A stretch of DNA of 57,948 bases, taken from the NCBI RefSeq assembly GCF_003334315.1, contig NZ_QOWR01000026.1; one strand, given 5' to 3'. Both the position numbers and the translations under genes were made by a program. Source of the DNA: Escherichia coli (lineage in GTDB: Bacteria > Pseudomonadota > Gammaproteobacteria > Enterobacterales > Enterobacteriaceae). Positions within the stretch are counted from its first letter, which is position 1. The number at the start of each line of letters is the position of its first letter. Of this stretch, positions 205 to 490 are shown in pieces. The notes below the pieces were generated by a model, which worked only from the letters and a program-made list of their open reading frames with translations, did no database searches and was not told the origin of the DNA.

Positions 205-256
205 CGCACGCTGAACGAAAATCAGAAAGTTGAATTTTCTATTGAGCAGGGGCAAC

Positions 257-490
257 GTGGCCCCGCGGCAGCGAACGTTGTTACGCTCTAAGGTTGCCGT
301 TATTACTCAACATCTCCATTTCCGCTGTCCATGTTGTCATGGTTCACAGTACCGTACATCGGCATTCGATGTGACGGAGCGAAACCCTTTGGGCGCTAAG
401 TGTATTTTTTGTAAATCGACGATGATCACCTTTGATAACGTCGCGCTGCAAATACGCACGGACCATGCGCCGCTGGATTTCACAAAATAA
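257..490 (+). CDS. Small Cys-rich zinc-ribbon-like protein, possibly ymcF; start codon uncertain
   Basis: ORF 230-490 has no in-frame ATG before residue 65; GTG at 257 follows an AGGGG Shine-Dalgarno-like motif; motif CPCCH...CIFC; position upstream of ymcE matches K-12 order as recalled. Confidence 0.4.
   Translation: MAPRQRTLLRSKVAVITQHLHFRCPCCHGSQYRTSAFDVTERNPLGAKCIFCKSTMITFDNVALQIRTDHAPLDFTK

Follow-up and report, generated by a model that had tools for sequence, protein, structure and literature searches.

The question raised by this locus is whether chromosomal DNA has been lost next to an IS1 element at the end of a draft contig. The window, which is the whole 57,948-bp contig QOWR01000026.1 of the draft E. 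coli assembly GCA_003334315.1, opens inside an IS1 copy, and a small Cys-rich ORF resembling ymcF follows. In K-12 MG1655 the order of the locus is gfcA-IS1D-cspH-cspG-ymcF. The initial annotation correctly placed cspG and cspH between IS1D and ymcF in K-12, took both genes to be absent from the present DNA, and proposed either that IS1 had inserted at another site or that DNA adjacent to it had been deleted.

Comparison with IS1 showed that positions 1–204 (minus strand) are the IRL-proximal 204 nt of the element (IS1 positions 204–1, in reverse complement), with IRL ending at 204, where the IS1 end had been placed, and with the contig breaking inside the repeat. The identity of this segment is 98.5% with K-12 IS1D and 100% with the IS1 carried by strain PSS-13, and window positions 57745–57948 are its exact reverse complement. 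It contains the 5′ part of insA (1–149, minus strand, about 50 codons), identified by gene call and by the Pfam domain Zn_ribbon_InsA, which reads away from cspG. The left terminal inverted repeat (IRL, 182–204) carries the variant GGTGATGATGCC in place of GGTGATGCTGCC, a variant shared by 339 of the 5,426 complete E. coli genomes. Both imperfect terminal inverted repeats of the IS1 family (IRL GGTGATGCTGCCAACTTACTGAT, IRR GGTAATGACTCCAACTTATTGAT) were found, the IRL in the window with a difference of one base, and the IRR on the partner contig described below, from L023 position 4136 onward. Both IS1 reading frames were likewise found, insA as Zn_ribbon_InsA (window 149–1) and insB′ as DDE_Tnp_IS1 at the end of the partner contig.

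The DNA between IS1 and ymcF is not a spacer. Positions 205–291 (plus strand, 87 bases) translate to RTLNENQKVEFSIEQGQRGPAAANVVTL followed by a stop, i.e., 28 codons identical to CspG residues 43–70. The view that cspG is absent was thus mistaken, because IS1 adjoins cspG codon 43. The window encodes only these residues of the 70-aa cold-shock domain. The motifs KGFGFI and VFVHF, which are the cold-shock-domain RNA-binding motifs RNP1 and RNP2, fall within CspG residues 1–42 and lie on the other contig, the gene being split by IS1. The reading frame of the remnant is closed upstream by a stop at 187–189, and no ATG, GTG or TTG precedes position 205 within it.

The Cys-rich ORF is ymcF (302–490, plus strand), with 62 codons and an ATT start 10 nt after the cspG stop, as assigned from the annotations of K-12 (b4723) and RefSeq and from PF23641 (YmcF-like). 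Its DNA is identical to the annotated RefSeq ymcF of PSS-13, its position and ATT start are those of K-12 b4723, and its product is a 62-aa Cys-rich protein encoded directly 3′ of cspG, so that its provisional identification held. The distance of about 50 bp that had been given from IS1 to the first plausible start fits an in-frame GTG at 257, 52 nt from the element, but the annotated ATT start at 302 lies 97 nt away. The in-frame codons upstream of ymcF (TTG at 230, TTG at 242, GTG at 257) are all within the cspG frame in every E. coli, and are therefore not ymcF starts. Positions 299–304 read GTT ATT in the window and in PSS-13, and ATT ATT in K-12, so that only the annotated non-canonical ATT start of ymcF is conserved. 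Mentions of ymcF in the literature were incidental only.

A terminator scan revealed a hairpin followed by a T-run just 3′ of ymcF (495–513, plus strand), which is likely the end of a cspG-ymcF transcript. The hairpin and T-run fall within the annotated 5′ end of ymcE (465–695; overlap region 465–521). Since the first ~19 annotated ymcE codons overlap the ymcF 3′ end and the terminator, the annotated ymcE start is questionable. The genes following ymcF are ymcE, gnsA, yccM and torS. YccM (906–1979, minus strand) carries V96L relative to PSS-13, and this exact protein is listed in only five blocks of the public collection (longest contigs 10–200 kb), making it a handy lineage marker.

The locus was then compared with complete genomes. 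The exact IS1-cspG junction occurs in none of the 5,426 complete E. coli genomes, searched with IS1 in both orientations, and the IRL-side junction sequence was not found in species-representative genomes or in JGI metagenomes. In its unique DNA, the window is all but identical to a clade of IS1-rich strains, with a few differences per 20–25 kb. In PSS-13, one of the strains with near-identical flanks, an equally oriented IS1 whose 204-nt IRL end matches that of the window base for base, rare variant included, lies exactly 888 bp to the left of the present junction position. The intervening 888-bp segment consists of cspH, the intergenic region and cspG codons 1–42, and is nearly universal, being matched in 5,412 of the 5,426 E. 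coli genomes.

On this comparison alone, the most likely explanation was an IS1-adjacent deletion, in which a resident IS1 to the left of cspH, like those of PSS-13 and HS30-1, removed cspH, the intergenic region and cspG codons 1–42 (888 bp relative to PSS-13). Deletion-associated IS1 copies that lack a target duplication are also frequent here (7 of 16 sampled), and strain AH04 provides a precedent, sharing the IRL junction of strain FT130 but missing 1,323 bp beyond the opposite end of the element. Such a deletion leaves no target duplication and removes the intervening DNA, and a simple insertion places the upstream half of cspG, together with one copy of the duplicated target, next to IRR.

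The far side of the element was therefore sought as a protein. For a simple insertion, we predicted the ORFs that would result from cspG codons 1–42, a duplicated target, and read-through into IRR. A 9-bp duplication predicts a 71-aa ORF composed of CspG residues 1–45 and the 26 IS1-encoded residues GNDSNLLIVFYVQIMPDDFVMQLHRF. Exact look-up in the public collection found this fusion ORF in exactly one contig, QOWR01000031.1, which belongs to the same assembly GCA_003334315.1, and returned no record of the fusion ORF for an 8-bp duplication. The protein is recorded as WP_165843457.1, 'cold shock domain-containing protein', from E. coli. The order on QOWR01000031.1 is gfcD-gfcC-gfcB-gfcA-cspH-cspG (codons 1–45), followed by the IS1 IRR and a DDE transposase reaching the contig end, and no IS1 lies between gfcA and cspH. 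The absence of cspH thus applied to the window but not to the genome, and the same assembly encodes cspH and cspG codons 1–45 beyond an IS1 at this exact position, which is the arrangement named in the initial annotation as refuting its reading.

At the base level, the left junction reads GAATTCCGCACGCTG followed directly by GGTAATGACTCC (IRR), and the right junction reads CATCATCACC (IRL) followed by CGCACGCTGAACG. The boundary thus does carry a target-site duplication, for which it was to be inspected: the 9 bp CGCACGCTG are present at both junctions, in accordance with the ~9-bp duplication of the IS1 family. The right-hand copy occupies 205–213 of the window (cspG codons 43–45), and the same 9 bp directly precede IRR on QOWR01000031.1. 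Removal of IS1 and one copy of CGCACGCTG gives an exact match to the intact cspG of PSS-13. The presence of CGCACGCTG at both junctions and the exact rebuilding of cspG argue for a simple insertion and not for an IS1-adjacent deletion.

An IRR on the left and an IRL on the right are compatible with one element in one orientation. The two junctions lie on separate short-read contigs, with IS1 assembled at positions 1–453 (counted from IRR) and 565–768, and with the central 111 nt, which presumably hold the insA-insB′ −1 frameshift site, missing. Because of this gap, the continuity of a single copy is deduced from the duplicated 9 bp and the agreement in orientation between the two ends. The junction itself was also recovered, by exact look-up of the V96L YccM, in an independent Logan assembly (SRR1122540; contig present in four samples), which begins 26 nt inside IS1 and matches with 0 mismatches over 5,801 nt; it is therefore real.

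Taken together, a simple IS1 insertion into cspG with the 9-bp duplication CGCACGCTG, a draft break inside IS1, and nothing deleted is very likely the correct reading. A 768-bp IS1 would have transposed into the cspG coding sequence in an E. coli lineage, duplicating the target at codons 43–45. Short-read assembly would then have broken inside IS1, such that the window opens with the IRL end, cspG codons 43–70, ymcF, ymcE and gnsA, and the upstream half (the gfc operon, cspH, the cspG promoter and codons 1–45) ends another contig at IRR. It is only through this break that the window seems to have lost cspH and the front portion of cspG.

The fusion ORF on QOWR01000031.1 rules out the adjacent deletion that the complete genomes had favored, and we regard that explanation as highly improbable: gfcA, cspH and cspG codons 1–45 are kept directly beside IRR with a perfect 9-bp duplication, and the resident IS1 between gfcA and cspH that the deletion calls for does not occur in this assembly. 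The deletion put forward in the initial annotation falls with it, and its other proposal, a different insertion site, proved correct. A chimeric join at the repeat might also produce an IS1-cspG junction, as the contig ends inside a multicopy repeat, and the break at the same point in IS1 recurs in many drafts. The probability of such an artefact is close to negligible, given that Logan independently assembled the same junction from the SRR1122540 reads, and that a reciprocal junction with the matching duplication exists.

The arrangement of the two halves of cspG depends further on the second IS1 end, which occupies the other end of the contig (57745–57948, plus strand), inverted relative to the first and located between yceJ and yceO, 32 bp beyond the stop codon of yceO and 228 bp upstream of yceJ. 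The two ends both have IRL inward and share all 204 nt, the minority IRL variant among them. Pairs of this kind are substrates for inversion, and the simple insertion could have been followed by recombination with the inverted IS1 at yceJ-yceO, flipping a 57.5-kb segment so that the cspG halves are no longer neighbors. The short-read contigs fit both arrangements equally. However, positive evidence for the flip is lacking, the close complete relatives are all collinear over the window, and the origin of the junction would remain the same simple insertion. We consider this additional step improbable, though less so than either the deletion or the chimeric join. A duplicative inversion linking both IRL-inward IS1 copies to a resident IS1 was also considered, and was rejected because the strain has no resident IS1 beside cspH.

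No IS1 was present at the exact right-hand yceJ-yceO site among the complete genomes examined. Searches for the partner contig of this copy (IRR followed by AGGGAGATT and yceO) by way of the truncated InsB fragment or SolA did not find it, both proteins being too common. An IS1 is present between yceO and yceJ in GCA_052953335.1 (L037 4607–5302), apparently oriented the other way with respect to yceJ, so that this spacer too has been targeted by IS1 more than once. Further IS1 copies occur near yceI/yceJ.

Returning to the simple insertion in cspG, we examined its predicted effects on cspG and ymcF. As judged from the sequence, the cspG promoter would now drive the 71-aa chimera, which would retain the N-terminal KGFGFI and VFVHF motifs and lose the C-terminal third of the cold-shock domain, and would probably be non-functional. 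The remnant at 205–291, which has neither a promoter nor an in-frame canonical start, is predicted to be untranslatable. As CspG belongs to a set of several cold-inducible CspA paralogues, its loss is expected to have a mild phenotype.

The location of ymcF 10 nt after the cspG stop, with the first terminator-like site after ymcF, suggests that it is co-transcribed with cspG. IS1 separates ymcF from the cold-inducible cspG promoter, and would likely silence it. A promoter scan located a promoter-like site for insA at 197–170 on the minus strand, directed away from ymcF, and found no outward promoter-like site across the junction. Fusion promoters can be created by IS1 (Prentki et al. 1986, as cited in PMC9330008). 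A hybrid outward promoter was considered here, as the hexamer TTGGCA in IRL (191–196) reads outward, and was rejected, as no acceptable −10 element occurs at a spacing of 16–18 nt.

The apparent loss of cspG and cspH is thus an artefact of the contig break inside IS1, the real lesion being a split cspG and a likely silenced ymcF. The finding is of little importance beyond annotation, but offers a worked example for draft assemblies in which a contig ends within an IS: the fusion ORF expected on the far side of the element is predicted and then looked up as an exact sequence.

The gfcA-cspH-cspG interval (~1 kb, K-12 locus L010 12637–13588) is a recurrent IS1 target with many distinct sites. 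Within ~950 bp of the junction position, IS1 occurs with IRL toward cspG in 71 complete genomes and with IRR toward cspG in 124. At least 195 of the 5,426 complete genomes have IS1 in the interval, in both orientations, often with gfc/etk or cspH lost. Among 16 IS1 configurations sampled at the locus, nine are simple insertions with 8–9 bp duplications, and seven are associated with deletions and lack a duplication. IS-IS recombination and adjacent deletion are among the frequent causes of missing duplications (PMC11708052).

The nine duplication-flanked copies contain the same element in the same orientation as here, but none lies within the cspG coding sequence. That of C9 is inside cspH, those of FT130, 55989, MEW and ZF8-1 are between cspH and cspG, and those of CUVET19-1426, EH10-18-47, SL124 and AREA_C483 are downstream of cspH. 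In the seven deletion-associated strains (PSS-13, HS30-1, A30, PD7, STEC276, JS316 and AH04), IS1 adjoins the cspH/cspG region with IRL facing cspG, there is no duplication, and 432–7,521 bp of gfc/etk and sometimes cspH are gone, whereas the present IS1 has an intact duplication and no loss.

Two comparisons illustrate how these configurations arise. The IRL junction of AH04 (L018) is that of FT130 (L007; K-12 L010 position 13178), and AH04 lacks the duplication, its 1,323-bp loss on the side of IRR covering cspH, gfcA and part of gfcB. This pair is a clear local case of IS1-adjacent deletion after insertion. PSS-13 (L001) and HS30-1 (L004), whose flanks are near-identical to the window, have IS1 junctions that differ on both sides (etk|12700 and gfcE|12794, respectively, in K-12 L010 coordinates). 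These two cannot be derived from each other by deletion, indicating several independent IS1 remodellings within one clade.

It is conceivable, though unlikely, that the present insertion is one among many in a true IS1 hot spot spanning this ~1 kb and, as the sole one inside the cspG coding sequence, was perhaps selected, through CspG loss or the uncoupling of ymcF from cold induction, and is not neutral.

The closest well-known counterpart is IS1D of K-12 MG1655, which is in the same neighborhood and is likewise a simple insertion, with its own 9-bp duplication GACAATACG. The two nevertheless differ in location, orientation and terminal sequence. IS1D is intergenic, between gfcA and cspH, 1,041 bp to the left of the present junction position (IS1D end at L010 12546, window junction at 13588), and has IRR toward cspH and a canonical IRL with GCTGCC; the present IS1 is inside cspG, in the opposite orientation, and has GATGCC. 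The present insertion is thus different from, and independent of, K-12 IS1D and the PSS-13 and HS30-1 copies, and as an event it is ordinary and of a type already catalogued, namely IS1 insertion with the canonical 9-bp duplication.
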